A DNA stretch of 32,000 nucleotides from Thermofilum pendens Hrk 5. Lineage in GTDB: Archaea > Thermoproteota > Thermoprotei > Thermofilales > Thermofilaceae. The notes under the pieces are model-generated. The model saw only the letters and a list, made by a program, of their open reading frames with translations. It had not been told where the DNA came from and made no database searches. The position numbers were made by a program, and so were the translations under genes. Shown here piece after piece: positions 12 to 30,838 of the stretch. How positions within the stretch are numbered: the first letter of the stretch is position 1; each line of letters begins with the position of its first letter. The stretch is taken from NCBI RefSeq assembly GCF_000015225.1, contig NC_008698.1, positions 840,001 through 872,000 of the forward strand, given 5' to 3'.

Positions 12-215
12 TTACGCTAGCCCTAGCCCCCTGAGCTCTTTGATGTCCTTCTCCAGCTCTCTCCAGTTTTTCGTCCTCTTCGACCTGCGGGGCGCTTCCC
101 ACGGAGGCGAGGAACCCTTGATCGCGTCTAACGCTTCGACGAGGCGCGCCTCGTACAGCTCGTCGCCCTTAAGAGTGCTCGCCAGGATACGCGAGGGGGC
201 GCTTATCGCCCGCAC
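12..215 (-). CDS. possible small ORF (67 aa), unknown function
   Basis: Complete ATG-to-stop ORF, divergent from the 277 start. The charged C-terminal half (KRTKNWRELEKDIKELRGLG) looks protein-like. No motif recognised, and it lies at the window edge. Confidence 0.25.
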   Translation of the reverse strand: MRAISAPSRILASTLKGDELYEARLVEALDAIKGSSPPWEAPRRSKRTKNWRELEKDIKELRGLGLA

Positions 216-276
216 GGTAACCCTCGAGCGCGCCCTCGCAGGGGCGCCCCCTCCACCATTTAAGGAAAGGTTAAGT

Positions 277-1713
277 ATGGTTGGAGAGAAGATGATGAGG
301 AATGAAGAGGTCGAGAAGGTTGTTAGGGAGGAGGTTTGGAGGCGTGCGGCTTTAAGCCTCTACGCCACCAGAACAGAGGATAAGAGGAAAGCCAGGGGCG
401 GGAAGAAGGGCGAGATACACTACCGCGGCCTGTATGACACTGTGAGCGAGGTTGACTGGGACTTCACTAGGTTCCTCATAAACGGGTACAGCGTCGTGCC
501 GGACGAAGTCTACCCGAGGTTTCACCGCTTCATAGACATCGACGCGAGGAAGTACCTTCTACTGAACGACGACAGCAAGCCGAGAGAGGGAAGCGCTGTC
601 GTAGAGCTACGCGATAGGCTACAAGCAATCGTCGACGCTACCGAAGACGGCCTCAAAGTTGAGAGACACGGCAGAGTCTGGCACGTTTACGTGCCCGGCG
701 AAAACTGGTACGTAACTGTCTCGAGGCCCAACGCGAAGAGCTGGAGGGTGCGCGTACCACTGGAAGGCTTCTGGGTTGAATCGGAGTTTCCCAAGGTTCT
801 AGTGAATACTCCGAGCGATGTTCTCAGAAGCCTGCAGAAAGGGTGGCTTCTCACAGATGTCACTCCGCCGCACGGGCGCATCAGCGACGTACATTTCAGC
901 ACAACGCAGAGCTGGCAGTTGCCAGCGACGCTCGCCAGCTTCCCGGGAGAAGTCAGGCTCGGCGTCACGGCGGGCATTCTCGGCAGTACTAGGCTGAGCA
1001 TCCAGTGGCAGGCGCGCGTTGACGGTTACGAGGAGGAGCTGGGCTGGGCCTCCGAGCTCATCGGCGAGGTTAAACGTGCAGAGTTTCGTCAGCTCGTCGA
1101 GAGGTGTAAGGAGCTTAACGGTGACTCGGTGGCGCTGACGACCGCCTTCCTGGGGGACGGCGAGCTCGAATTCTTCCTAAAGCTTCGGGTGCTCTTCTTC
1201 AAGGTTGGACATGAAGACATCTACTTGCCGGCGGAAAGCGCTATAGCTAATGCCCGCTTAGCCGTGGAGAGAGCTAGCGAGTACGTGCGCTTTGTCTCGC
1301 TGGTAACTAAGTGTCCAAAGATTAAACACTTCCTCTTCGTCGGCTACGGATTGCCGCAGAAGAGAGGTAAGAAGGACGGCCAAAGAAATAACCCGTTCTA
1401 CGCCGAGGTGGCAGGGGCGCAGCTACACCTTGTCTACATCTCTACGAGGAACCACGTCTACGCTAGAATCGCAGTCGAAGCTGTGCCTTCGGGCTGGGTG
1501 GAGGAGGCACGCGCTCAAGGCTGGGACGTCCGAGTGGTTCGAATGGGTGGCAGGGAGTACTACCAGGTCACTCATGCTTCTTTGATGGAGCATGCCTGTC
1601 ACGACGAAGCACTGCGTATAACACTCCTCGCCTTCACGAAGTACAAGGCCGAGCGATACCCCAAGGCGCAAAGCCTCGTAGAACGCCTCGAAAAACTGGG
1701 GACAGAAGACTAA
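277..1713 (+). CDS. hypothetical protein (478 aa), no recognisable catalytic motif
   Basis: Long ORF. I prefer ATG 277 (MVGEKMMRNEE...) over the tracked start at 40. The first 79 codons are low-complexity and overlap the antisense small ORF. An ATTTAAGG TATA-like element lies about 20 nt upstream of 277. The gene ends about 100 nt before tRNA-Thr. Confidence 0.6.
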   Translation: MVGEKMMRNEEVEKVVREEVWRRAALSLYATRTEDKRKARGGKKGEIHYRGLYDTVSEVDWDFTRFLINGYSVVPDEVYPRFHRFIDIDARKYLLLNDDSKPREGSAVVELRDRLQAIVDATEDGLKVERHGRVWHVYVPGENWYVTVSRPNAKSWRVRVPLEGFWVESEFPKVLVNTPSDVLRSLQKGWLLTDVTPPHGRISDVHFSTTQSWQLPATLASFPGEVRLGVTAGILGSTRLSIQWQARVDGYEEELGWASELIGEVKRAEFRQLVERCKELNGDSVALTTAFLGDGELEFFLKLRVLFFKVGHEDIYLPAESAIANARLAVERASEYVRFVSLVTKCPKIKHFLFVGYGLPQKRGKKDGQRNNPFYAEVAGAQLHLVYISTRNHVYARIAVEAVPSGWVEEARAQGWDVRVVRMGGREYYQVTHASLMEHACHDEALRITLLAFTKYKAERYPKAQSLVERLEKLGTED

Positions 1714-11959: not shown

Positions 11960-12850
11960 GTGCGCCTCAAGGTAGTCGAGAGTCTAAGGTCTGCTTTACG
12001 CTCAGCAGGCTGCCCCGTCGTGGTCGACGATGTGGGCGCGCGTGTCGCGGAGGAGCTCGGCTTGGAGAACGTTCTGCGCGTAGACAGCGCGGATCTGGTG
12101 GGCTTAGAGAAGGTTCACGCGGCCATACACGAGTCCGGCGCACGGAGGATTGTGGGGCTCGGGGGTTTACCGGCCGTTAACGCCGCGAAGGTGCTCGCCT
12201 CTCCCAGGCTGAGGGGCAAGTCCTTGCGCGAGGTGTACTACGACGAGAGAAAGCCCGCGGTGGAGGTTCTCCTGGTGCCGCTCGAACCCGCCTACTGCAC
12301 CGACCTCAGCGACCTCGTGCTCGTCTACGACTCGAAGATCCCGGCGTGGCTCGTGAGGAGAGCCTACGGAAACACCTACGTGGCTACGTTCGCATACCTC
12401 GAGGAGGCTGGAAGAAGCCCCAGAACAAGGGTAGTCGTAAGGGACATGTCTCTCGCCGGTTACAGCGACGTAGACCCGGGGGAATCCTACGTGTCGCTGT
12501 GTAGCATCTACGAGGGGCGTGCCCCGGGACCGCTACTGATAGCAGCGATGACGCTCTCGTCGATCCTTGGATGGAGCTTGGACGGCGCGGTGGAAGCTGT
12601 CGCGGGCGCCAAGTTCGAGGAAGCCCTCAAGGAAGCATTCGAACAAGAGAACCCGGAGTCGTGGTTAGAGAAGGAGATGAGGCTTAGGAGGGCGCAGCCG
12701 AGGCTCTGGAAAAGGGTCGACCTACTCGTGGAGCACGCGTGGACATTTTACAGCCTAAGGCTCAGGTCGCTCGGCTTCCGGGGAAAGGTAGAAGTCTACA
12801 AGCTCTTCAGGTCGCTTCTGTCCTCCTTACCAGCCGTAGGAACTCCTTGA
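11960..12850 (+). CDS. hypothetical protein, possibly a degenerate dehydroquinate-synthase/Fe-ADH-like fold
   Basis: 296 aa with a GTG start 25 nt downstream of the TATATA centre. The segment RIVGLGGLPAVNAAKVLA resembles the GGGSxxDxAK nucleotide-binding loop of that superfamily, but I could not find the metal-binding His cluster. Confidence 0.5.
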   Translation: MRLKVVESLRSALRSAGCPVVVDDVGARVAEELGLENVLRVDSADLVGLEKVHAAIHESGARRIVGLGGLPAVNAAKVLASPRLRGKSLREVYYDERKPAVEVLLVPLEPAYCTDLSDLVLVYDSKIPAWLVRRAYGNTYVATFAYLEEAGRSPRTRVVVRDMSLAGYSDVDPGESYVSLCSIYEGRAPGPLLIAAMTLSSILGWSLDGAVEAVAGAKFEEALKEAFEQENPESWLEKEMRLRRAQPRLWKRVDLLVEHAWTFYSLRLRSLGFRGKVEVYKLFRSLLSSLPAVGTP

Positions 12851-15240: not shown

Positions 15241-15927
15241 ATGTCTAGACAGGCGGGAGTATCCTACTATGTGAAGAACGCCCTGCTCGCCAGGCCGTAC
15301 ATCCTGGTGGCCATCCAGCAGGGGATAGTCAACTACTCTGCCCTCGCAAAGTTGCTCCACGCCGACATAGAGAAGATGGCTGGTAGAAAGTTCACCGAGA
15401 TATCGGTGAAGATGGCGGTACTCAGGGTTTCGAAGTCCCTCTTAGAGGCTGTACCCCCTACCCACAGGCTTTCAAGAGTGCTCGCAAACAGCTCCCTCAA
15501 GGTCGTCCAAGACGTTGGAGTGCTCTCGGTAACGCGCGAGGGATTCGAAAAGCTGACCAGTTTTCTCCCGATCGGTAGCCGGGGGAAGACTCCCCAGCTC
15601 TTCCACGTGGTCCAGGGGGCTTCGGCTGTCACGGTGATAGCAGACGAACCCGTGGTGGCATCTCTGTACTCTAAGGCTAGCCCGGAGACCGTGCTACAGT
15701 ACCTTCGCAACCAAGCCGCCGTCATCCTGACAGGTCCTCCCGAGATACTCACAACGCCGGGAGTAGTCTCGCTGATATCCCTCAGCGTCGCCGTAAGGGG
15801 GGTGAACCTCACGGAGATAGTGTCATGCCACCGCGACATCGTGCTCATAGTCAACGGGAGCGACGTAGCGCTCGCCTTCGAGACCCTGAGATCCCTGGTA
15901 GAATTCGCTAAGACAGAGCAAGCCTGA
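15241..15927 (+). CDS. hypothetical protein with a C-terminal ACT-like domain (putative small-molecule-binding regulator)
   Basis: 228 aa. It appears leaderless, with CTTATAAAG centred about 26 nt upstream. The C-terminal pattern TPGVVSLISLSVAVRGVNLTEIVSCHRDIVLIVNGSDVALAFETLRSLVE matches the ACT beta-alpha-beta-beta-alpha-beta consensus by eye. Confidence 0.55.
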   Translation: MSRQAGVSYYVKNALLARPYILVAIQQGIVNYSALAKLLHADIEKMAGRKFTEISVKMAVLRVSKSLLEAVPPTHRLSRVLANSSLKVVQDVGVLSVTREGFEKLTSFLPIGSRGKTPQLFHVVQGASAVTVIADEPVVASLYSKASPETVLQYLRNQAAVILTGPPEILTTPGVVSLISLSVAVRGVNLTEIVSCHRDIVLIVNGSDVALAFETLRSLVEFAKTEQA

Positions 15928-21429: not shown

Positions 21430-21876
21430 TTACGTGATCGGCACCTTGTAGGGCTTCAGGCGCTTGATCTCCGACAAGACCCTCTCGATGAATGCGTCTA
21501 CGTACGCCCAGCTGAACCCCTTCTCCTCGAGCAGGCTCCTGACGTAGGCTTCGGTCTCCCGGTAGCTCTTGAACCTCTCGTTTATCTCCCTCCACGGGAT
21601 ACCCTTTAACCCCTCGGCGAGCTTCGCGTCGAAGGGCAGAATCCCCTTCAGCATAAGGACGGCGATCGAGGGGTACCCCAGGTAGCCCCTGTACACAGAC
21701 CCATTGTCGTTCGAAGCTATCCCCAGCTTTCCATCCCAGACAACCCTGTAAACCCTGCTACCATCGGAGCCAGTGACCCTCGCCTCCCCCTCCCCGACAA
21801 AGACAACCCTCCCATCCCCTATAGCCCCGAGAGCCTCGAGCACCTTCACCCTCGGGGGAACGCGCCAGTACTCCAC
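21430..21876 (-). CDS. hypothetical protein (148 aa)
   Basis: Clean ORF with protein-like composition and no motif recognised. The segment YRGYLGYPSIAVLMLKGILP vaguely resembles a Cys-less SWIM-like element. That resemblance is speculative. Confidence 0.55.
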   Translation of the reverse strand: MEYWRVPPRVKVLEALGAIGDGRVVFVGEGEARVTGSDGSRVYRVVWDGKLGIASNDNGSVYRGYLGYPSIAVLMLKGILPFDAKLAEGLKGIPWREINERFKSYRETEAYVRSLLEEKGFSWAYVDAFIERVLSEIKRLKPYKVPIT

Positions 21877-23149: not shown

Positions 23150-23713
23150 ATGCGTGTATACGTGGTAACCGGGAATGTGCACAAGGTAGCGGAGCTCTCC
23201 CTAGCGCTTAAGCCCTTCGGCGTCGAGCTGGAGCCCCTCCGCGCAGAGAAGCTCGAAGTACAGTCCGAGAGCCTCGAGAAGATAGCCCTCGTAGCGGCGG
23301 AGCACCTGCCGCCCCTCGACAAGCCGGCCATAGTCGAGGACGCGGGGCTCTTCGTGAAGGCTCTCAACGGCTTCCCCGGCCCCTATAGTAGCTACGCCTA
23401 CAAGACGATAGGCTGCAGGGGGTTGCTGAAGCTCATGGAGGGCGTCTCCGACAGGGAGGCAGTCTTCAGGTCCGTCATAGCCCTCAGAATGCCGGACGGC
23501 TCGATACACCTCTTTAAAGGCGAGGCGGCGGGCGTGATAACAGAGGAGGAGAGGGGCACTGGGGGCTTCGGCTTCGACCCCGTGTTCCGGCCGCGCGGCT
23601 CCGAGAAGACATTCGCCGAGATGACGACCGAGGAGAAAAACCTGTACTCGCACAGGGCTAAAGCCGCGAGAAACCTGGCCGAGTGGCTAGTGAGGCGCGC
23701 TAAGGGTATTTGA
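23150..23713 (+). CDS. rdgB: non-canonical purine NTP pyrophosphatase (HAM1/RdgB ITPase)
   Basis: I prefer ATG 23150 (MRVYVVTGNVHKVAE...), with CTTTAA about 27 nt upstream. It has the motifs TGNxxKxxE, GFGFDPVF and SHRAKA. Confidence 0.9.
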   Translation: MRVYVVTGNVHKVAELSLALKPFGVELEPLRAEKLEVQSESLEKIALVAAEHLPPLDKPAIVEDAGLFVKALNGFPGPYSSYAYKTIGCRGLLKLMEGVSDREAVFRSVIALRMPDGSIHLFKGEAAGVITEEERGTGGFGFDPVFRPRGSEKTFAEMTTEEKNLYSHRAKAARNLAEWLVRRAKGI

Positions 23714-26078
23714 CGACAGTGGGCGAGTACTTCTCCAGGAACATCGGCGCGTAGATGTACGCGTTCTTCCACATGTCGCCGGAGCTTACGCTGAGAAAGC
23801 CGCTTCCCTGAGCCCTGTAGTCCAGGATCACTGTCCAGAAGGAAAGCGTGGCGCCGCTACCCACCGATCTGTATACGCTGTAGGGCCAGAAGTTGTACTC
23901 TATGGAGCCTTGCCGAGTACCCTCAGGAGCATAGGCTGTTGTGCAGAACCTTGCGTCGTTGCCGCCGATACTTCTGAGTAGCTGTACACCCGACTGGCTG
24001 AGCACGAGTGCCCTACCGAAGCTGTACACAGCGCTCCAGTGGGTGATGAGAAAGCCAGGGTCTGGTCTGCATAGCACTCCGCGGGGCGAACTTTTGACGT
24101 AGTCAAAGGAGAATTTATATGTTTGATTAGGTAGTCCTCCTTCGAAGCCCGCCGTTAGGTAGAGGAAGTAGTCGGCTATACCCTTCCCCATCTCGGTGGA
24201 CATCCAGTACCCGTAGCCGCTCTTCGAGTATTTCCAGTAGATGTAGGTGATGACGGGTATGTAGCGCGTACCGTTGACTACCTGCACTATGGATAACGTG
24301 TCGTAGTAGTCGCTCCGAACGTCGTTGCACGAGTAGTCGTAGACGTTGCCTACCAGCGTGGTGTTAAGCACGGCGAAAATCCTTATCGGCGCCCTGATCC
24401 ACGAGTACCTCAGGTAGTTGTAGTAGACGCTCCAAGTGCCGTAAGGCCTGTAGCGGCCGAGGTAGCTCCCGTAGACGTCGAAGGAGTGAAGGTTGTAGGG
24501 GCCCAGGGCGCTGTCCTTGTCGGGATCCCAGAGCACGAACGCGGCCACGCCGCAGTAGCTGACGTGGTCGTATCCGCGCGAGGACTGGTGCTCCAAGTCG
24601 ACGAACTCGACGTCGTATAGCGGGTGCCAAACGTCCTTGTGAGTACTGCTGTAGGTGTAATTTATGCTGGAGGGGTACGCCGCGGGCTCGGCGTCCAGGT
24701 CGTCTATCCACCAAAGCGCTACGACCTGCTTTCTTACGCTGGTGGTCGGGAACTTTACCTGGAAGACGAGCCTCGTGTTGTACTTAGCTCCCTTGACGAA
24801 GTCCATCTGGGGGTCGGAGAGCCCCACGGGGACGTTCACCCATATCCCGTGCCACTGCACGGTGGTCCAGTTCTCGTACTGGATAGGCCTCTCGACAAGC
24901 GTACGTAGCGTCCCGTCGAGCGTGGCGTTCACCCTGATCTGCTTGATCGGTACGTAGGGGAACGGGGGTAGCTTGAGCTGGGGGTCTACGGCGAGTTTCT
25001 GTCCGAGCCAGAACAGCGATAGGTTGGAGCTCATCTCCAGCGTGTACACCTCGTTGCTGATATCGCTGGGCCTCTTCAGGCTCTGAATTTTACCGTCCTT
25101 GTCGTAGTAGTAGAGCGTGTCCGGGGTGTTCCTTTGTATCGCGAAGACGAGGTAGCTGTACGCAGAGCCCTCCACGACTATCCCCCTCTCGTCGGATACT
25201 ACCACCATGACTGGAGCATATTGCTCCCCTGTCAAGGGGTCCTGGAAAACCTCTACTGCCGGCTCGAAGGTCACCGAGTAGTTCCCGTAGCCCTGGTACG
25301 TCACGTCCGTTATCTTTGCGAGCCTCCACTCACCCGTGTACCTGCCTTGGGAGTCCCTCTCGGGGTAGTAAACCCTCACCCACCCCTTCGAGAGGAGCCT
25401 GCCGTAGGGGTTCCCGGTTACCCTAGGGGGATCCGTAGAGTAGTCTATGTCCCCGTCGTACCTAACGTTTATGATTATCGTCGTGTTCCGCGGGGTCACC
25501 TGCACCGGCTTCCTGTAAACCGTCAGCGTTAAGCCGACGAAGACGTCGCTCTCCCAGTTGTAAAACCCAAGGTTCGTAACGTTAAGCTTCAGCCTCGCAT
25601 AAGCGTAGCTCCCCGAGGTCGGCAGGTACCAGTAGCCATTCATCAAGTTGTAGACGCTCCTGGAGCGGCCGAGCTCCTTCGAGAGGTCTAGGCGTAGCAC
25701 CTCGTAGCCCACCTGTACCCCGTACTCCGCGTAGGCCTTCGTCACCGACTGCCTCCAGTACTCCAGGTAGGTCTTCGCCGCCATCCTAGCGACCGTGAAG
25801 TTATGCCTGTTGTACATCGAGACGCCGTACTGGCTAAACCTCTCCGTTAGGTCGGAGAACTCGGAGTAGTTGAAGTAAGCCCTCGTCGCCACGGCTAGCA
25901 TCGCGGCGAGCGCCCTCTTGAAGTCGGCGGTTATGGCGGCTACAAGCTCTCTGACTACGGGGCTCCTCGTCCTCAGGAACAGCGAGTGCGCTTGGTACAC
26001 CGTTACGAGTATCGACATGAGCACGAGCCCTATAACCAGCACGGCGGCTACCACTATCTGGGCGCTCCTCCTGCGCAA
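23700..26078 (-). CDS. large (792 aa) exported protein with a pilin-like N-terminal anchor; putative pilus-associated adhesin or tip protein
   Basis: TTG start 6 nt after the preceding stop. The N-terminus is RRRSA|QIVVAAVLVIGLVLMSILVTV, followed by a helical segment and then a long Tyr/Trp-rich region. I counted 12 N-x-S/T sequons by hand. No enzymatic motif was recognised. Confidence 0.7.
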   Translation of the reverse strand: MRRRSAQIVVAAVLVIGLVLMSILVTVYQAHSLFLRTRSPVVRELVAAITADFKRALAAMLAVATRAYFNYSEFSDLTERFSQYGVSMYNRHNFTVARMAAKTYLEYWRQSVTKAYAEYGVQVGYEVLRLDLSKELGRSRSVYNLMNGYWYLPTSGSYAYARLKLNVTNLGFYNWESDVFVGLTLTVYRKPVQVTPRNTTIIINVRYDGDIDYSTDPPRVTGNPYGRLLSKGWVRVYYPERDSQGRYTGEWRLAKITDVTYQGYGNYSVTFEPAVEVFQDPLTGEQYAPVMVVVSDERGIVVEGSAYSYLVFAIQRNTPDTLYYYDKDGKIQSLKRPSDISNEVYTLEMSSNLSLFWLGQKLAVDPQLKLPPFPYVPIKQIRVNATLDGTLRTLVERPIQYENWTTVQWHGIWVNVPVGLSDPQMDFVKGAKYNTRLVFQVKFPTTSVRKQVVALWWIDDLDAEPAAYPSSINYTYSSTHKDVWHPLYDVEFVDLEHQSSRGYDHVSYCGVAAFVLWDPDKDSALGPYNLHSFDVYGSYLGRYRPYGTWSVYYNYLRYSWIRAPIRIFAVLNTTLVGNVYDYSCNDVRSDYYDTLSIVQVVNGTRYIPVITYIYWKYSKSGYGYWMSTEMGKGIADYFLYLTAGFEGGLPNQTYKFSFDYVKSSPRGVLCRPDPGFLITHWSAVYSFGRALVLSQSGVQLLRSIGGNDARFCTTAYAPEGTRQGSIEYNFWPYSVYRSVGSGATLSFWTVILDYRAQGSGFLSVSSGDMWKNAYIYAPMFLEKYSPTVVKYP

Positions 26079-26084
26079 GCCCGG

Positions 26085-26585
26085 TCACCCCGAGTACCCT
26101 ATCGTGAGGAGGATGTAGAGCGCAGTCCCCCTAACGCTGTCCGGGTCCCCCGTGCAGACGTACGTGTAGCTCACGGGCTCGGACTCCACGAGCCTAGTGG
26201 TGTTCGTGTCGTAGTTAGACGCACACCCAAGCCAAACAAGGCTAGTGTTGCCCGCCGAGACGTCGAAGTCCACCCTGTACACGTCCATCCTGAAGAGTAT
26301 GCCCGGCGGGAGGCTCGCAGTCGCCATCATCGCGAGGTCGTACAGAGTGCACCCCCCGCCCTGCGCCGCGGAGGGGTTCAGGTTGGCAAGGGTTTTCTCG
26401 AAGACACCGTTATCAGCCATGTTGTTTAAAAGGTTGTACGCAAGCCTCCTCAGATCGCTTGTCTCCCGCACATAAACGCTTCGCAGAGGCCTCGCGAAGG
26501 ACATCACGAGGAGTATAATCGCTACGACCATGAACGTAGCTAGGACAGCCTCAATTATCCTCACCTGACCCCTTCTACGCGCCAC
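26085..26585 (-). CDS. type IV pilin-like protein (166 aa)
   Basis: I prefer GTG 26585, which lies 10 nt after the upstream stop, over ATG 26678, which would overlap the upstream gene by 83 nt. The N-terminus is ARRRG|QVRIIEAVLATFMVVAIILLVMSF. It has 2 sequons and 3 Cys. Confidence 0.65.
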   Translation of the reverse strand: MARRRGQVRIIEAVLATFMVVAIILLVMSFARPLRSVYVRETSDLRRLAYNLLNNMADNGVFEKTLANLNPSAAQGGGCTLYDLAMMATASLPPGILFRMDVYRVDFDVSAGNTSLVWLGCASNYDTNTTRLVESEPVSYTYVCTGDPDSVRGTALYILLTIGYSG

Positions 26586-26595
26586 ACCGCGCCAC

Positions 26596-27831
26596 CTACG
26601 GGAACCCCTCGACCCTCCTCCATATCGTGAGCTCGACGACGTAGGGGTAGCTGTATATCGTGCATATCCTTGGACCAAGCGTCACGGAGTTCGCTGGCTG
26701 AGCTTTCGAGCCACCGTAAGAGATGTCTATGCTCGGGATCCTGTTCACCACGATTACGACGGGGCTCCCCCTGAACTGGGCGAAGACGAAGATGTGGCTC
26801 GAGAGGGGCTCGACATACTTAACGTAGCCCACGAGGTACCACTGCTTCGCTGACGGGAGAACCTTTCCAGCGTTGTTGCAGAGAGGGTCGTCGTTGCGGA
26901 AGTTACCTGTCGAGTCCCTGCACCACACCACGGTCGTAAAGTTCAGGAGGTTCTGGTACTCTGGTACTGCTTGGAGAAGTTCGTCCTTCACGTGAACTGC
27001 TCCAGAAGTCTTTCCAACCTCTATTGTTCTATCTACGAATATGTACTTCCCGATGATATAGCCCTCGACGGGCACCCCCCTCTGAGCTGTCGGCGCATAG
27101 CCAGCGACGCTGACGAAGCCCTGCCACTCCGCCCTCAGTATCAGGAAGGCGAAGAACCACCTGTCTGTCCTCTGTTTGTTAAAGTAGTTGCTCAATTCGG
27201 ATCTATAGTCAAGCGTACAGGTTCCCAGAGGTCCTGTGAGATTGCTCTTAGCGAATACTTGCTTTTTTTCGACTTCTCCATTGCCAGGATTCACCCTAAC
27301 TATCACGTACATACCCGTCACGTTTGCGTTCGGAATCCCCAGCCCGTAGTAGTTGGTCACGTTGACCTGAAAGATGGACGAGAAGTTCCAGTTACCGAAC
27401 TGCCTGTAAGCCACGGGCTTAACGCTTACTACTAGCATGGGCCTCATCCGGAGCCTGAAGCCGTAGTTCTCGCTTAGCCCAAGTAGCTGCGCGAGCCTGG
27501 AGGCGTTGAGGAGGAGGGGGTTCGGGAGCGTGCTCAGGTTCGCGAGCCGCATCACCTTGTCAGGGTCCACGACGTACGGCGTCCTCGTGCCAGCGAGCGC
27601 TAGCCCGAAGTCCGTCAGCGTGTCCGGGGTTACCGAGATATTCGTCCCCCAGTCCGCCGGGTAGCCCGGGGTAAGCACGATCTTATCCATAACCCTCTCC
27701 GCCACTGTGAATAGCTGTTCCTCGTACACCGTGCCCAGGGTGTTCATAGAGGTTGACGCCATGCCGTACGCTACCGCTATGAGCAGTACGATGAGCACCC
27801 CCAGGGCGAGGTACTCGAGCGTGGCCTCCAT
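26596..27831 (-). CDS. pilin-like exported protein (411 aa)
   Basis: The N-terminus is MEA|TLEYLALGVLIVLLIAVAYGMA, with a very short leader, a Glu early in the mature part and a roughly 20-residue hydrophobic helix. I counted 8 sequons by hand. It has its own TATA-like TTTATTAA at 27864-27871. Confidence 0.65.
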   Translation of the reverse strand: MEATLEYLALGVLIVLLIAVAYGMASTSMNTLGTVYEEQLFTVAERVMDKIVLTPGYPADWGTNISVTPDTLTDFGLALAGTRTPYVVDPDKVMRLANLSTLPNPLLLNASRLAQLLGLSENYGFRLRMRPMLVVSVKPVAYRQFGNWNFSSIFQVNVTNYYGLGIPNANVTGMYVIVRVNPGNGEVEKKQVFAKSNLTGPLGTCTLDYRSELSNYFNKQRTDRWFFAFLILRAEWQGFVSVAGYAPTAQRGVPVEGYIIGKYIFVDRTIEVGKTSGAVHVKDELLQAVPEYQNLLNFTTVVWCRDSTGNFRNDDPLCNNAGKVLPSAKQWYLVGYVKYVEPLSSHIFVFAQFRGSPVVIVVNRIPSIDISYGGSKAQPANSVTLGPRICTIYSYPYVVELTIWRRVEGFP

Positions 27832-27895
27832 GAATACCCCTGAAAACTATCCTCAGATACGCCTTAATAAACCTGAGCGCGCGAGTCGCAGGGCT

Positions 27896-28381
27896 TTAAG
27901 GCGTCTGGATCTTCGCAAACCCGACGTAGATGCTGTTTCCATCCCTGAAGGCCACTATAGCGGGCTTGTAGCCGGGTGGTAGCGGTAATAGTATTGTGTC
28001 TGAAACGGTTAAGCCGCCCACCTCCCTGGATCCCTTCACGGCGTGTACGGGGCTCTGCCCGAAGTTGGGCGTTACGACGACTCTTACCTGCTGGTATATC
28101 TGTAGCCTAGCCGTGACGTTGAGCACGTTCTCGCTCGTCTCCCCTATGCTCAGCGAGTAGGGCTGCCCTGCGAGCGTATCGGGCACGGTGAGGTACATGT
28201 AGCTCAGGTTGCTCCCACCCAGCGTGTACACCGAGATCAGCTCGACGACCTCCCTGGCGGCGCTCTCCGCCACCTCGGATAGCATGACGTTCTGAGACTG
28301 CATCTGGTTCAGGAAGAGGAGGAAGCTGAACGCCGCGAGGATAATTATAGCCACTTGTAGCAACGTAACCGTGCCTATCAC
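27896..28381 (-). CDS. pilin-like small exported protein (161 aa)
   Basis: GTG start. The N-terminus is MIG|TVTLLQVAIIILAAFSFLLFL, followed by a beta-rich domain with 2 sequons. Confidence 0.6.
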   Translation of the reverse strand: MIGTVTLLQVAIIILAAFSFLLFLNQMQSQNVMLSEVAESAAREVVELISVYTLGGSNLSYMYLTVPDTLAGQPYSLSIGETSENVLNVTARLQIYQQVRVVVTPNFGQSPVHAVKGSREVGGLTVSDTILLPLPPGYKPAIVAFRDGNSIYVGFAKIQTP

Positions 28382-28411
28382 GTGGGAGATAACGGCGCTA
28401 GGCGTAGCATA

Positions 28412-29251
28412 TCACCTCGTGCTAACCTCCACCGTAGCAACCTTGACTACTACAACGAGGCCGTCTGCCGGCGCTCCCTCGGGCGCGCGAGGGAGCTTGA
28501 CTTGTTGTTGGAGGGTGCCCTGCTCCGCGAGTACGGCGAGGTCGCTGGACCCGTCGAACTTGTACTCTGTAACGTTTAGCCCCACGTTTCTGAAGACCAC
28601 GGGTATGGTTCCGGAGCCGCCCAGGTAGCCCGGCTTCAGCACGACTACGTGTATTGTGAAGAAGTTGTACCTTTTAACGCTACCCCCCACAGTCACGTTT
28701 ATCTGCCCGTTGTAGAAAACCCTCACGCGCGTGTACATGTACGCGCACGCCCTCTGCGAGAAGTTCTCGTAGACCACGACTATGGGTTCACCGCTCTCGA
28801 CGATAAGCTTTTTGAGCTCCCCTTGAAGGTCTCCCGACTCGGGGTACAGGAGGCGCGGAGAGGTCGTGACCAGGGGTCCCCCGCACACCTTCAGCCTGAG
28901 CGGGTAGCCGCTGAACACCTGCTGGATTCCTCCTCCCTGGACACCCCAAACCCACACGGAGAGCGGGGAGGATGCCTTCTCGAAGGATATCCCCGTGCTC
29001 GTAAGGCTGAACCTCACGTAGCGGGATCCCCCGGTGCCGAAGGCTACTTGTTCGAGCGCTGTTGCCGCGTAGGTTAACTGCTCCTTCGCGTACTCGTACT
29101 CCATTGTCTGCCTGTTCATGTCTATGAGGGACGTCGAGTAGTAAAGGGCTACGGAGACTATGGTCAGCATTATGCTCGTGAGTATAACCGCTGCTATGAC
29201 GGGCGATATAGCCTTCCTCATAGACCCCTGCATAGATAAAGGCTGAGGCAT
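28412..29251 (-). CDS. archaeal type IV pilin-like protein (class III signal peptide, PF07790-type N-terminus)
   Basis: The N-terminus ...MRKA|ISPVIAAVILTSIMLTIVSVAL matches the archaeal pilin N-terminal consensus ([KR]-[GA]-[IV]-SPVI-[AG]-x-[VI]-[LI]-L). Three in-frame ATGs (29251, 29233, 29221) precede the motif, so the true start is ambiguous. Confidence 0.75.
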   Translation of the reverse strand: MPQPLSMQGSMRKAISPVIAAVILTSIMLTIVSVALYYSTSLIDMNRQTMEYEYAKEQLTYAATALEQVAFGTGGSRYVRFSLTSTGISFEKASSPLSVWVWGVQGGGIQQVFSGYPLRLKVCGGPLVTTSPRLLYPESGDLQGELKKLIVESGEPIVVVYENFSQRACAYMYTRVRVFYNGQINVTVGGSVKRYNFFTIHVVVLKPGYLGGSGTIPVVFRNVGLNVTEYKFDGSSDLAVLAEQGTLQQQVKLPRAPEGAPADGLVVVVKVATVEVSTR

Positions 29252-29257
29252 AGATAA
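29230..29257. repeat. tandem 10-bp direct repeat GCATAGATAA (minus strand TTATCTATGC), 18-bp period
   Basis: Exact copies lie at 29230-29239 and 29248-29257, between the 512-aa gene and the pilin gene. Each carries a TATA-like TTATCTA and an in-frame ATG. Confidence 0.6.
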
Positions 29258-29269
29258 CGCTTTTCTATG

Positions 29270-30808
29270 CTATTCTCTTCTCCTGCGGATCACCACCACT
29301 ACTATCACTATGGCTACCACTGCTACTATCGCGACGAGGATTATGGGCTGGAAGAGGGCGCCGGGCGCCTCCTGCGCGCCAGCGGTAGCCCCGGGCACCG
29401 TGTAGGTGACCGTCTGGGTCTTCGAGCCCCAGGGGGAGTTGTAGGTGGCTACTACCTGGTAGCTACCGGGGTCGAGGCTTAAGGGCAGGGTCGCGGTACC
29501 CTCGACTGCGGACGCCCCGTCTATGCTCGTAGGGGTCTTGCTGAAGGACGCGTCCGGGAGGGAGGTCGCGAAGACCACCGCTCCACCGCTACCAACGACT
29601 TTCACATCCACGTTGGAGTTCTGGTAGAGGGGTGATACCCTCACGACTAGTGTGCCGGCGGTAACCTGGAGGGATACCTTGGGCTCAACTCTCACGGACT
29701 TCACGGTGAACCTGGAGGTCACCGGCGAGTACTTGTTCGAGTCAACCTTGACCGCTACCTGTGCCTCCCCCTCGGGGAACGCCGCGTATATCGTAGGGCT
29801 GAAGCTACCGGAGTAGACGGGTTGCCCTCCCCAGTAGACGGTCACCGTTGCCTGCTCGTCCTTCTCTACGGGCGGCGTTAACGCTATGCTTATCGGGACG
29901 TAGGCGCCCGCGACCACCGTGCTCGGCGCCGAGACCTTAGCCTCCCTTACGGGCTTAATGGATAGGCTCAGCGGGTATACGTAGGTGTACGTGTAGCCCC
30001 ACGGCGTCGTCGCGGCGACTTTTACCTGGACGCTGTACTGGCTCTTCACAAACGGCCCTAGCTTGCTGACGTTCATGAGGAACTCCAGCGTCCTCCTCTC
30101 GTTGACGTTCATGCGCCCCGTTGTGAGAAGGTAGCACTGGACGGGCGCCCCCTCTACCTGGGCTTGGGCGTTCTCGATGTACCCCTCGCCCTGCACCCAT
30201 ATGTCGACGAAGAACCTGACGACGTAGGGCTCGTAGTCTATCTTCAGGTAGGGCTCGACGTACACGTACGTCTTCGGCGCTATAACCCTCACGGGGATAC
30301 TCGTGAACGCCGAGTAGTAGCCGGACTCCTGTATCGGGGAGCCTCCCTTCGGGACCGCCTCGTAGTAGTACGAGAGGTCTATCCTGAGGCTAGTGTCCTT
30401 CACGTCCCCGGGCGCCATCTGCGACGCGAAGAACCTCGGGGTAAGCTTTACGGAGAGGTACGCTTGCCGGCCGAGCGAGAGCGGTATGGGGGTGTCGGGG
30501 ACGTACTCGTAGACGCTCGTATCCACCGTGAACCTAAGCGCCTTGAGGTAGAACACCTTGAGGTCTCCCTCCACCTCGGTTATCGTGACGGTCACCGGTA
30601 CCTCGTACTCGTTAGTAGCCACGAGCTCCGACGGAACCTTCACCGATACCTTTAACCATATGGGGCCTATCTTTACGAGGGACTCCTTCTGGGTCTGCTG
30701 CGAGAAGGCAGGCTGAGGAGCGGCGAAGACTACTAAAAGGAGGAGCACCACCAGGATGAAGCGCGCGGAGGATACTTGCAAGCTCTCTCTCCGTTTACTC
30801 CTAACCAT
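29270..30808 (-). CDS. secreted multi-beta-domain surface protein with a C-terminal TM anchor (512 aa from ATG 30808)
   Basis: It has a Sec-type signal (MVRSKRRESLQVSSARFILVVLLLLVVFAAPQPAFS|QQ). Repetitive beta-strand-like segments (KVSVKV, VTVTITEV, VQVKVAATT, VSLQVTAGTLVVRV) follow. The C-terminus is ILVAIVAVVAIVIVVVVIRRRRE. I prefer ATG 30808 because the TATA box TTTATAG at 30832-30838 is 24 nt upstream of it. Confidence 0.7.
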   Translation of the reverse strand: MVRSKRRESLQVSSARFILVVLLLLVVFAAPQPAFSQQTQKESLVKIGPIWLKVSVKVPSELVATNEYEVPVTVTITEVEGDLKVFYLKALRFTVDTSVYEYVPDTPIPLSLGRQAYLSVKLTPRFFASQMAPGDVKDTSLRIDLSYYYEAVPKGGSPIQESGYYSAFTSIPVRVIAPKTYVYVEPYLKIDYEPYVVRFFVDIWVQGEGYIENAQAQVEGAPVQCYLLTTGRMNVNERRTLEFLMNVSKLGPFVKSQYSVQVKVAATTPWGYTYTYVYPLSLSIKPVREAKVSAPSTVVAGAYVPISIALTPPVEKDEQATVTVYWGGQPVYSGSFSPTIYAAFPEGEAQVAVKVDSNKYSPVTSRFTVKSVRVEPKVSLQVTAGTLVVRVSPLYQNSNVDVKVVGSGGAVVFATSLPDASFSKTPTSIDGASAVEGTATLPLSLDPGSYQVVATYNSPWGSKTQTVTYTVPGATAGAQEAPGALFQPIILVAIVAVVAIVIVVVVIRRRRE

Positions 30809-30831
30809 ACACAACACTCCTCCCATCCGGC

Positions 30832-30838
30832 TATAAAT
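30832..30838 (-). promoter_or_regulatory. TATA box (TTTATAG) for the pilin-like gene block
   Basis: On the minus strand it reads GCTATAGATTTATAGCCGG. It lies 24 nt upstream of ATG 30808, consistent with a leaderless transcript. Confidence 0.55.

Follow-up and report, generated by a model that had tools for sequence, protein, structure and literature searches.

A block of six genes on the minus strand, designated here g1 to g6, was analysed in a stretch of 32,000 nucleotides of Thermofilum pendens Hrk 5 DNA (contig NC_008698.1, positions 840,001 to 872,000; hereafter the window). The analyses indicated that five of these genes, g2 to g6 (hereafter the cassette), probably serve as a minor-pilin-like, accessory module within a type IV filament (T4P/TFF) system found widely across Thermoproteota, a reading to which we give a probability of about 0.7. 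Calling of open reading frames (ORFs) confirmed six co-directional ORFs running from 30808 to 23700, with intergenic gaps of 18, 30, 64, 10 and 6 nt in order from g1 to g6; an earlier note on this DNA, made from the sequence alone, had given the same six ORFs, coordinates and gaps, all of them correctly. The products are exact matches to the deposited T. pendens Hrk5 proteins ABL78323 to ABL78318, and the genes are located in the window as follows:

30808 to 29270, minus strand: g1, 512 aa, ABL78323, UniProt A1RYP3
29251 to 28412, minus strand: g2, 279 aa (269 aa if the ATG at 29221 is used), ABL78322, Tpen_0921, UniProt A1RYP2
28381 to 27896, minus strand: g3, 161 aa as annotated, with a GTG start, ABL78321, UniProt A1RYP1
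27831 to 26596, minus strand: g4, 411 aa, ABL78320, UniProt A1RYP0
26585 to 26085, minus strand: g5, 166 aa, ABL78319, UniProt A1RYN9
26078 to 23700, minus strand: g6, 792 aa, ABL78318, UniProt A1RYN8

Conservation and distribution of the five-gene cassette

Over 15 independent loci, ranging from Thermofilaceae to Bathyarchaeia, keep the order g2-g3-g4-g5-g6, and the arrangement is therefore not due to chance. A scan with the g6 profile, using one genome per species, yielded 15 loci, and tblastn found the five genes in the same order at these loci wherever the contig was long enough. The earlier note had made its proposal depend on synteny in related genomes, and g2 to g6 were indeed co-linear in Thermofilaceae, in metagenome-assembled genomes (MAGs) of Thermoprotei and in Bathyarchaeia. 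The six-gene block described there thus stands as a conserved unit for g2 to g6, and g1 falls outside it as a lineage-specific add-on.

The breadth of the cassette was also evident from single families. The g4 profile, searched against 1.84 billion representatives, matched 259 clusters at E ≤ 1e-3 and 172 at E ≤ 1e-10, and the named clusters among these matches belong to "Thermoprotei" and Bathyarchaeia MAGs. On a Bathyarchaeia contig (L028; loci are numbered with the prefix L) the position-equivalent products of g2 to g6 have 268, 170, 546, 169 and 584 aa, and in a 2.4-Mb genome (L027) they have 278, 176, 387, 266 and 740 aa. Profile hidden Markov models showed that each product of both loci matches solely its own T. 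pendens counterpart, with E-values of 1e-17 to 1e-69. Between T. pendens and T. adornatum, the cassette proteins share 59-70% identity, a level on par with the flanking housekeeping proteins Ham1, nitroreductase and TtuA (58-75%), and this speaks for purifying selection that is still acting. Comparison of the small families with one another by hhalign gave no significant sign of paralogy (for g2 and g3, the alignment of the first 70 residues had E=0.013 and a probability of 3%).

Linkage to type IV filament machinery

The cassette of most uncultured relatives adjoins genes for a FlaI/GspE-type ATPase, a TadC/FlaJ-type platform protein and a small canonical PilA-type pilin. Three loci (L017, L019, L028) carry the T2SSE ATPase and the T2SSF platform genes directly upstream of g2, and T2SSF is directly upstream of g2 in L006, L011 and L027. 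In a second arrangement (L003, L005, L015, L026), T2SSF lies on the opposite strand directly downstream of g6, and the gene calls or ORFs read in L005 and L026 place the ATPase next after it. T2SSE and/or T2SSF are therefore linked to the cassette in every one of these orthologous loci and not in the window, where neither gene occurs anywhere in the 32 kb, bearing out the earlier remark that no assembly machinery was in view. A dedicated PilA-type pilin is likewise absent from the window.

The canonical archaeal pilin was present in about ten orthologous loci, has 149-171 aa and shows 31-72% identity between lineages. Examples of its N-termini are MARRKA↓ISPVIATVIIVAV… and MARRKA↓ISPVIATVIIVAVTIAVAIAVAFWMTG, the arrow marking here and below the class III cut. 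The ancestral locus comprised a PilA-type major pilin, a FlaI/GspE2-type ATPase, a TadC/FlaJ-type platform and the five co-linear genes. Since the full system has a separate major pilin, g2 to g6 are accessory and not the main subunit of the filament. The earlier note had reasoned that a heterogeneous set of this kind resembles minor pilins or accessory proteins and not a major-pilin locus, and this is backed by the orthologous cassettes that adjoin T2SSE, T2SSF and a separate PilA-type pilin of about 150 aa.

Location of the machinery in T. pendens

The cassette stands without machinery genes between ttuA and ham1 in T. pendens, T. adornatum and Infirmifilum lucidum, and in I. lucidum (L024) the five genes lie directly between the two. 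An orthologous ATPase of T. pendens, P0150, was found at a separate locus (L025). It is 65% identical to the ATPase of L019 and 66% identical to the cassette-adjacent ATPase P0157, and the divergence between P0150 and P0157 equals that of the cassette proteins. The nearest solved relatives of P0150 are GspE2 of A. fulgidus (2OAP, E=2e-111) and FlaI of S. acidocaldarius. In I. lucidum (L029), the orthologous ATPase gene is paired divergently with T2SSF (602 aa) and is also flanked by an AAA_18 gene; the ATPases of L025 and L029 share their downstream neighbours, which encode a protein of about 370 aa and a DUF711 protein. In T. pendens, then, the five genes are separated from the rest of the system and the orthologous ATPase is at a different locus, in agreement with the earlier suggestion that the machinery is encoded elsewhere in the genome. 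According to Table S1 of the census of archaeal type IV pilus-like loci by Makarova, Koonin and Albers (2016; PMC4858521), Hrk5 has three FlaI-type ATPases, three TadC proteins and one A24 peptidase (arCOG02298).

N-termini of the cassette proteins

A relaxed class III signal pattern, [KR]-x0-1-[GA]↓ followed by a hydrophobic stretch, which we take to be that of FlaFind, was scored across the orthologues. A hydropathy scan placed a single hydrophobic segment at the extreme N-terminus of each of g2 to g6, and the pattern preceded it in 13/15 orthologues of g2, 13/14 of g5 and 16/18 of g6, as compared to 1/14 of g3 and 0/16 of g4. The earlier note had proposed class III N-termini for all five proteins; this is upheld for g2, g5 and g6 and fails for g3 and g4, whose suggested cuts, MIG↓T and MEA↓T, lack conservation as cleavage sites in the orthologue alignments.

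The alignments revealed a distinct site in each of the three proteins with a leader. In g2, [KR]-x-G/A is followed by [ILV]-S-[PQT]-V (RKA↓ISPVIAAVIL in T. pendens). In g5, [KR]-G/A is followed by Q-x-R-[LI]-x-E (RRRG↓QVRIIE in T. pendens), with invariant G, Q, R and E, the last of them at mature position 6. In g6, [KR]-G/A is followed by Q-[IMF]-[ILV], with RRRSA↓QIVV in T. pendens and [KR]G↓Q in the orthologues.

In g3 and g4, the conserved N-terminus has 2-3 residues ahead of the hydrophobic helix, with neither K/R nor a conserved G/A. The g3 family begins with M-[PASV]-x-P-[VI]-[IF]-S-H-x-x-G-T, a start that resembles the "SPVI" that g2 would have after cleavage, the initiator Met standing at position -1. 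The g4 family begins with M-[HEN]-x-x-L-[ED]-Y, in which L5, E6 and Y7 are conserved in at least 90% of 49 sequences, and its Glu at position 6 corresponds to the position of the Glu in mature g5. Judged by these motifs, g3 and g4 look like leaderless pilin-like proteins. That two members seem to do without the prepilin peptidase would be an uncommon feature in the superfamily.

Family relationships and structure predictions

The g2 product is pilin-like, of the PilA/FlaF/FlaG type, and combines a canonical class III signal peptide with a β-rich C-terminal domain. It scored 17 bits against TIGR02537 (cut-off 20) and gave weak matches to the N-termini of UpsA, UpsB and BasA and to FlaF_Ig-like (E=0.07), while Pilin_N (PF07790) was found with E=0.16 in one of the 13 g2 orthologues. 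No match to PF07790 or TIGR02537 was obtained for g3 to g6; a UniRef source names g3 "Flagellin". Weak matches were further obtained to DUF7289 in 5/13 g2 orthologues, to DUF7266 in 6/11 g3 orthologues and to DUF7288 in 3/10 g5 orthologues. These are haloarchaeal families of unknown function, each matched by a different cassette gene, which hints at an ancient gene-for-gene relation to a euryarchaeal pilin set. Although below their cut-offs, the matches of the cassette proteins all agree in direction.

The AlphaFold2 model of g4 (mean predicted local distance difference test, pLDDT, 81.9) consists of a helix at residues 2-35 followed by tandem immunoglobulin-like (Ig-like) β-sandwiches, and a Foldseek comparison with the PDB returned no significant fold match. 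The g6 model (pLDDT 90.6, predicted template modelling score 0.86) has an N-terminal helix of 67 residues, a small helical region and large β-domains. Its Foldseek matches in the PDB were chains of GH38 α-mannosidase, PL26 lyase, LacZ and GH36, with E-values down to 1e-7, TM-scores of about 0.3 and about 8% identity. These may be read as matches to the β-sandwich domains of those carbohydrate-active enzymes, so that the predicted fold is a hint of glycan binding and not evidence of catalysis, and g6 is a candidate adhesin or glycan-binding module.

Sequons (N-x-S/T) were enriched in g6 (12 observed, 4.1 expected, P=0.001) and in g4 (8 observed, 3.0 expected, P=0.004), in keeping with exposure outside the cell; Tyr makes up 9.5% of g6. 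The earlier statement that the two largest proteins are sequon-dense is correct for g6 and incorrect for g1, the second-largest, which has one sequon, the other dense protein being g4. The orthologues of g6 carry lineage-specific insertions of 150-350 aa, and this size variation, together with that of g5 and the sequon enrichment of g6 and g4, fits exposed, variable, adhesin-like parts.

Several further observations were made on these families. The g6 orthologues of L013 and L016/L017 reach 950-1180 aa, with inserts around residues 330-372 of the T. pendens protein, and a Pfam scan of the long variants recognised no domain in the inserts. In L004 and L007, the g5 orthologues are doubled in size (about 390 aa). 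A Bathyarchaeota contig (L021, 3746-7338) encodes a g6 homologue of 720 aa with 30% identity, without g2 to g5; the gene after it encodes a protein of 476 aa in which a signal peptide is followed by CarboxypepD_reg and Big_1 Ig-like domains, with a transmembrane anchor at the C-terminus.

Proposed role and alternative explanations

In the proposed mechanism, all five proteins would insert N-in/C-out via the N-terminal helix. The products of g2, g5 and g6 would be cut after the conserved Gly/Ala by a PibD/FlaK-type peptidase, and those of g3 and g4, which begin at about the position of a mature pilin N-terminus, would for this reason need no cleavage. Through their helices the five proteins may assemble into a 1:1:1:1:1 complex that would prime or cap a filament built from the small major pilin, whose gene would lie at another place in the T. 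pendens genome, and would present the large, glycosylated g6 ectodomain as a carbohydrate-binding adhesin.

A number of points weigh against this role. Complex formation and location at the tip are suggested by analogy alone. No Pfam or NCBIfam model reaches its curated cut-off for any of the six proteins or their orthologue sets, and no relatives came up among PDB sequences in profile searches with g2, g3, g5 and g6. An unrelated gene of 291 aa occupies, in L025 of T. pendens, the place that T2SSF and AAA_18 have in L029 of I. lucidum; the platform gene is not on the 7-kb contig of the ATPase, and neither platform nor major pilin lies in the 32 kb window. Finally, T. pendens g3 has lost the family ATG, the aligned codon being ACG (28405-28403), 6 nt after the g2 stop. 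The conserved motif is still in frame as T-P-S-A-V-I-S-H (M-P-S-P-V-I-S-H in the family), so that g3 including this upstream part spans 27896 to 28405 on the minus strand. The next start is the annotated GTG at 28381, 8 codons downstream of the ACG and just before the hydrophobic helix. Either T. pendens g3 initiates at a non-canonical codon or it is N-terminally shortened by 8 residues.

A more far-reaching version of the accessory-module reading was also considered, and we regard it as doubtful. It makes the cassette the universal priming or tip complex of Thermoproteota type IV filaments and the archaeal counterpart of the bacterial minor-pilin complexes, with g3 and g4 "born mature", the initiator Met of both standing at -1 of a pilin cleavage site, and entering the filament without prepilin peptidase, and with a set older than the split of the major archaeal lineages. 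The second residue of g3 is always small (P, A, S or V), and methionine aminopeptidase could therefore expose a pilin-like N-terminus. From the weak gene-for-gene matches to DUF7289, DUF7266 and DUF7288 it would follow that the accessory set predates the split.

Alternatively, and with a probability that we consider low, the proteins may form an envelope-embedded structure, such as a short pseudopilus, a stator-like base or a bindosome-like assembly, in which g3 and g4 are permanent anchors like FlaF/FlaG of the archaellum and g6 is a glycan-binding or glycan-processing module at the surface for nutrient scavenging. Lacking a cleavable leader, g3 and g4 may stay anchored in the membrane, and the fold of g6 resembles domains of carbohydrate-active enzymes. 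The weak matches of g2 to FlaF_Ig-like and to the N-termini of BasA and UpsA point the same way, although the FlaF and Bas matches are far below threshold. A 2026 preprint on archaeal TFF systems argues that these machineries widely display binding proteins, and ABC-transporter genes lie next to the block in the window; in the other loci, however, no Pfam-recognisable gene for a solute-binding protein or an ABC transporter is linked to the cassette. An extended filament is further favoured by the dedicated, canonical major pilin of the complete loci.

It is considerably less probable that the T. pendens cassette is a decaying remnant of a system dismantled by rearrangement, whose genes no longer build anything. 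Such decay would agree with the machinery and major pilin not being adjacent to the cassette, with T2SSF missing from the T. pendens ATPase locus, unlike in I. lucidum, with the change of the g3 start from ATG to ACG and with the frameshifted g1 of T. adornatum. All five ORFs are nevertheless intact, g3 keeps an in-frame GTG just before its hydrophobic helix, and the cassette is as conserved as its housekeeping neighbours. The isolated arrangement is common to the cultured T. pendens, T. adornatum and I. lucidum and is therefore old and stable, and Table S1 of the 2016 census (PMC4858521) lists three TadC genes and a peptidase in the genome.

That the proteins are unrelated to type IV filaments, being ordinary signal-anchored, glycosylated envelope or S-layer-associated proteins with N-termini that mimic pilins, is strongly disfavoured: no pilin family model reaches threshold and g1 has the architecture of C-terminally anchored S-layer-like proteins, but the cassette repeatedly adjoins T2SSE, T2SSF and a PilA-type pilin across two classes and in two gene arrangements, and the motifs [KR]G↓Q and [KR]G↓[ILV]SPV are conserved.

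Comparison with known systems

As a minor-pilin-like accessory module, the cassette resembles the bacterial minor-pilin complexes (GspH-I-J-K of the type II secretion system, T2SS; FimU-PilV-W-X-E with PilY1 of type IVa pili, T4aP), which likewise combine four to five size-heterogeneous pilin-like proteins with one large, non-canonical, adhesin-like component. Bacterial minor-pilin operons can lie apart from the major pilin and motor genes, and the cassette is similarly a single operon that can be so separated. In the bacterial complexes, all proteins have cleavable leaders, whereas two of the five cassette proteins have none, and the likeness is one of analogy and not of membership. The g6 and g4 models, compared with the PDB by Foldseek, showed no GspK/PilX-type fold and no PilY1 β-propeller, the matches being confined to glycosidase-type and Ig-like β-sandwiches.

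Tad/Flp pilins and the pseudopilins TadE and TadF have the processing motif G↓xxxxEY. In the M-x-x-x-L-E-Y start of g4, the Glu-Tyr pair lines up with that of the Flp motif, provided that the initiator Met takes the place of the -1 Gly. Unlike the Tad/Flp pilins, g4 has no leader and no conserved Gly/Ala at -1, and it is a protein of 411 aa with Ig-like domains. The modular pilins PilB and PilC of the S. sanguinis T4P (PMC9934059) consist of a pilin module grafted on a large glycan- or protein-binding module that the filament displays, and g6 is alike in this respect; their domain families differ, however, and the host is a bacterial monoderm, and for g6 the binding of glycans is suggested by fold resemblance alone. 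In function, these lectin-bearing pilins and the bacterial minor-pilin complexes are the nearest analogues of the cassette.

The cassette also shares with FlaF/FlaG of the archaellum the pilin-like N-terminal helix, the Ig-like β-sandwich ectodomain and the association with FlaI and FlaJ genes, with the FlaF_Ig-like match of g2 (E=0.07) in the same direction; against this likeness, T. pendens has no archaellum genes in the tabulation of the 2016 census (PMC4858521). The Epd locus of Methanococcus maripaludis, according to the 2026 preprint, encodes several minor pilins needed for normal piliation and a class III-signal protein that bears a galactose-binding domain. It differs from the cassette loci in its ATPase clade and in having its own dedicated peptidase.

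The 2016 census (PMC4858521) describes T4P-like loci of Thermoproteales, "subclade 4E / 4E-tentative", with several predicted minor pilins and secreted proteins. It includes loci in Vulcanisaeta, Caldivirga and "two Thermofilum species" without ATPase and TadC, and tentatively ties the Thermofilum loci to an orphan, Thermofilum-specific ATPase clade. Proteins of T. pendens are placed in the pilin arCOGs 05475, 10502 and 14961, and Table S1 gives one member each of arCOG05475, the signature predicted minor pilin of subclade 4E, and arCOG10502. The composition reported for subclade 4E fits g2, g4 and g6 well, and the T. pendens cassette was very probably already listed computationally in this census. 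That survey used about 170 genomes and reported neither the complete operon (pilin, ATPase, platform and five genes) nor the reach into Bathyarchaeia nor the leaderless N-termini of two members. The 2026 preprint on archaeal TFF systems makes no mention of Thermofilum. Added by the present analysis are the ancestral operon in its complete form and its spread through Thermoproteota, a division between major-pilin and accessory roles, the recognition of two members without a leader and a confident model of g6.

Type IV filaments of archaea are abundant and diverse in hyperthermophiles, though knowledge of their priming and of their binding targets is scant. The cassette is a compact, widely conserved accessory set without a Pfam or NCBIfam model and thus a concrete target for structural work. 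T. pendens further illustrates that pilin modules can be scattered away from their motors, and "orphan" pilin blocks are not to be taken as new machines.

The g1 gene and other features of the window

The first gene of the block, g1, encodes an envelope protein that is lineage-specific, is anchored at its C-terminus and shares no more than its location with the cassette. Its product has a Sec-type signal peptide, a β-rich ectodomain, a C-terminal transmembrane helix and a basic RRRRE tail; the hydropathy scan located hydrophobic segments at residues 8-37 (signal-like) and 480-512 (C-terminal). Orthologues of g1 are confined to the closest Thermofilaceae (L003-L005, L026), and the gene is wholly absent in I. 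lucidum (L024). In T. adornatum (L023, 5234-6774), g1 is split into 319 and 151 aa by a frame change near residue 318, which is due either to a pseudogene or to a sequencing error. The possibility that g1 is the PySLP-like S-layer protein of T. pendens was rejected, as g1 is A1RYP3/ABL78323 and the S-layer study (a 2026 preprint) names A1RY64; the two have only the general architecture in common (Ig-like ectodomain, transmembrane helix, basic tail). A relation between g1 and the Ig-like neighbour of the g6 homologue in L021 was rejected as well, the architectures being alike without sequence similarity.

A candidate promoter was read from the sequence upstream of the block:

30832 to 30837, minus strand: TTTATA box, candidate promoter of g1, about 26 nt upstream of the ATG at 30808

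By the box-to-start spacing of archaeal promoters in general, this box is a candidate for a promoter giving a leaderless g1 mRNA. Within the 64-nt spacer between g3 and g4 (27832-27895, minus strand), some 35-40 nt upstream of the ATG of g4, lies a TTTATTAA element, which could be an internal promoter within the block.

The other genes of the window encode an acetyl-CoA synthetase, an FGGY kinase, RNase HII, a ROK protein, cysteinyl-tRNA synthetase (CysRS), two ABC systems, a ParA/NUBPL-type ATPase, TtuA, a nitroreductase and Ham1. A tRNA gene of 93 nt is present at 1812-1904 on the plus strand (Rfam tRNA, 56 bits); ARAGORN assigned it no anticodon, probably owing to an archaeal intron. Four ORFs of the window had no Pfam match, namely 40-1713 (plus strand, 557 aa), 11960-12850 (plus strand, 296 aa), 15241-15927 (plus strand, 228 aa) and 21430-21876 (minus strand, 148 aa), and for the 148-aa product of the last a precomputed record gives PF27709 (UCP014422).

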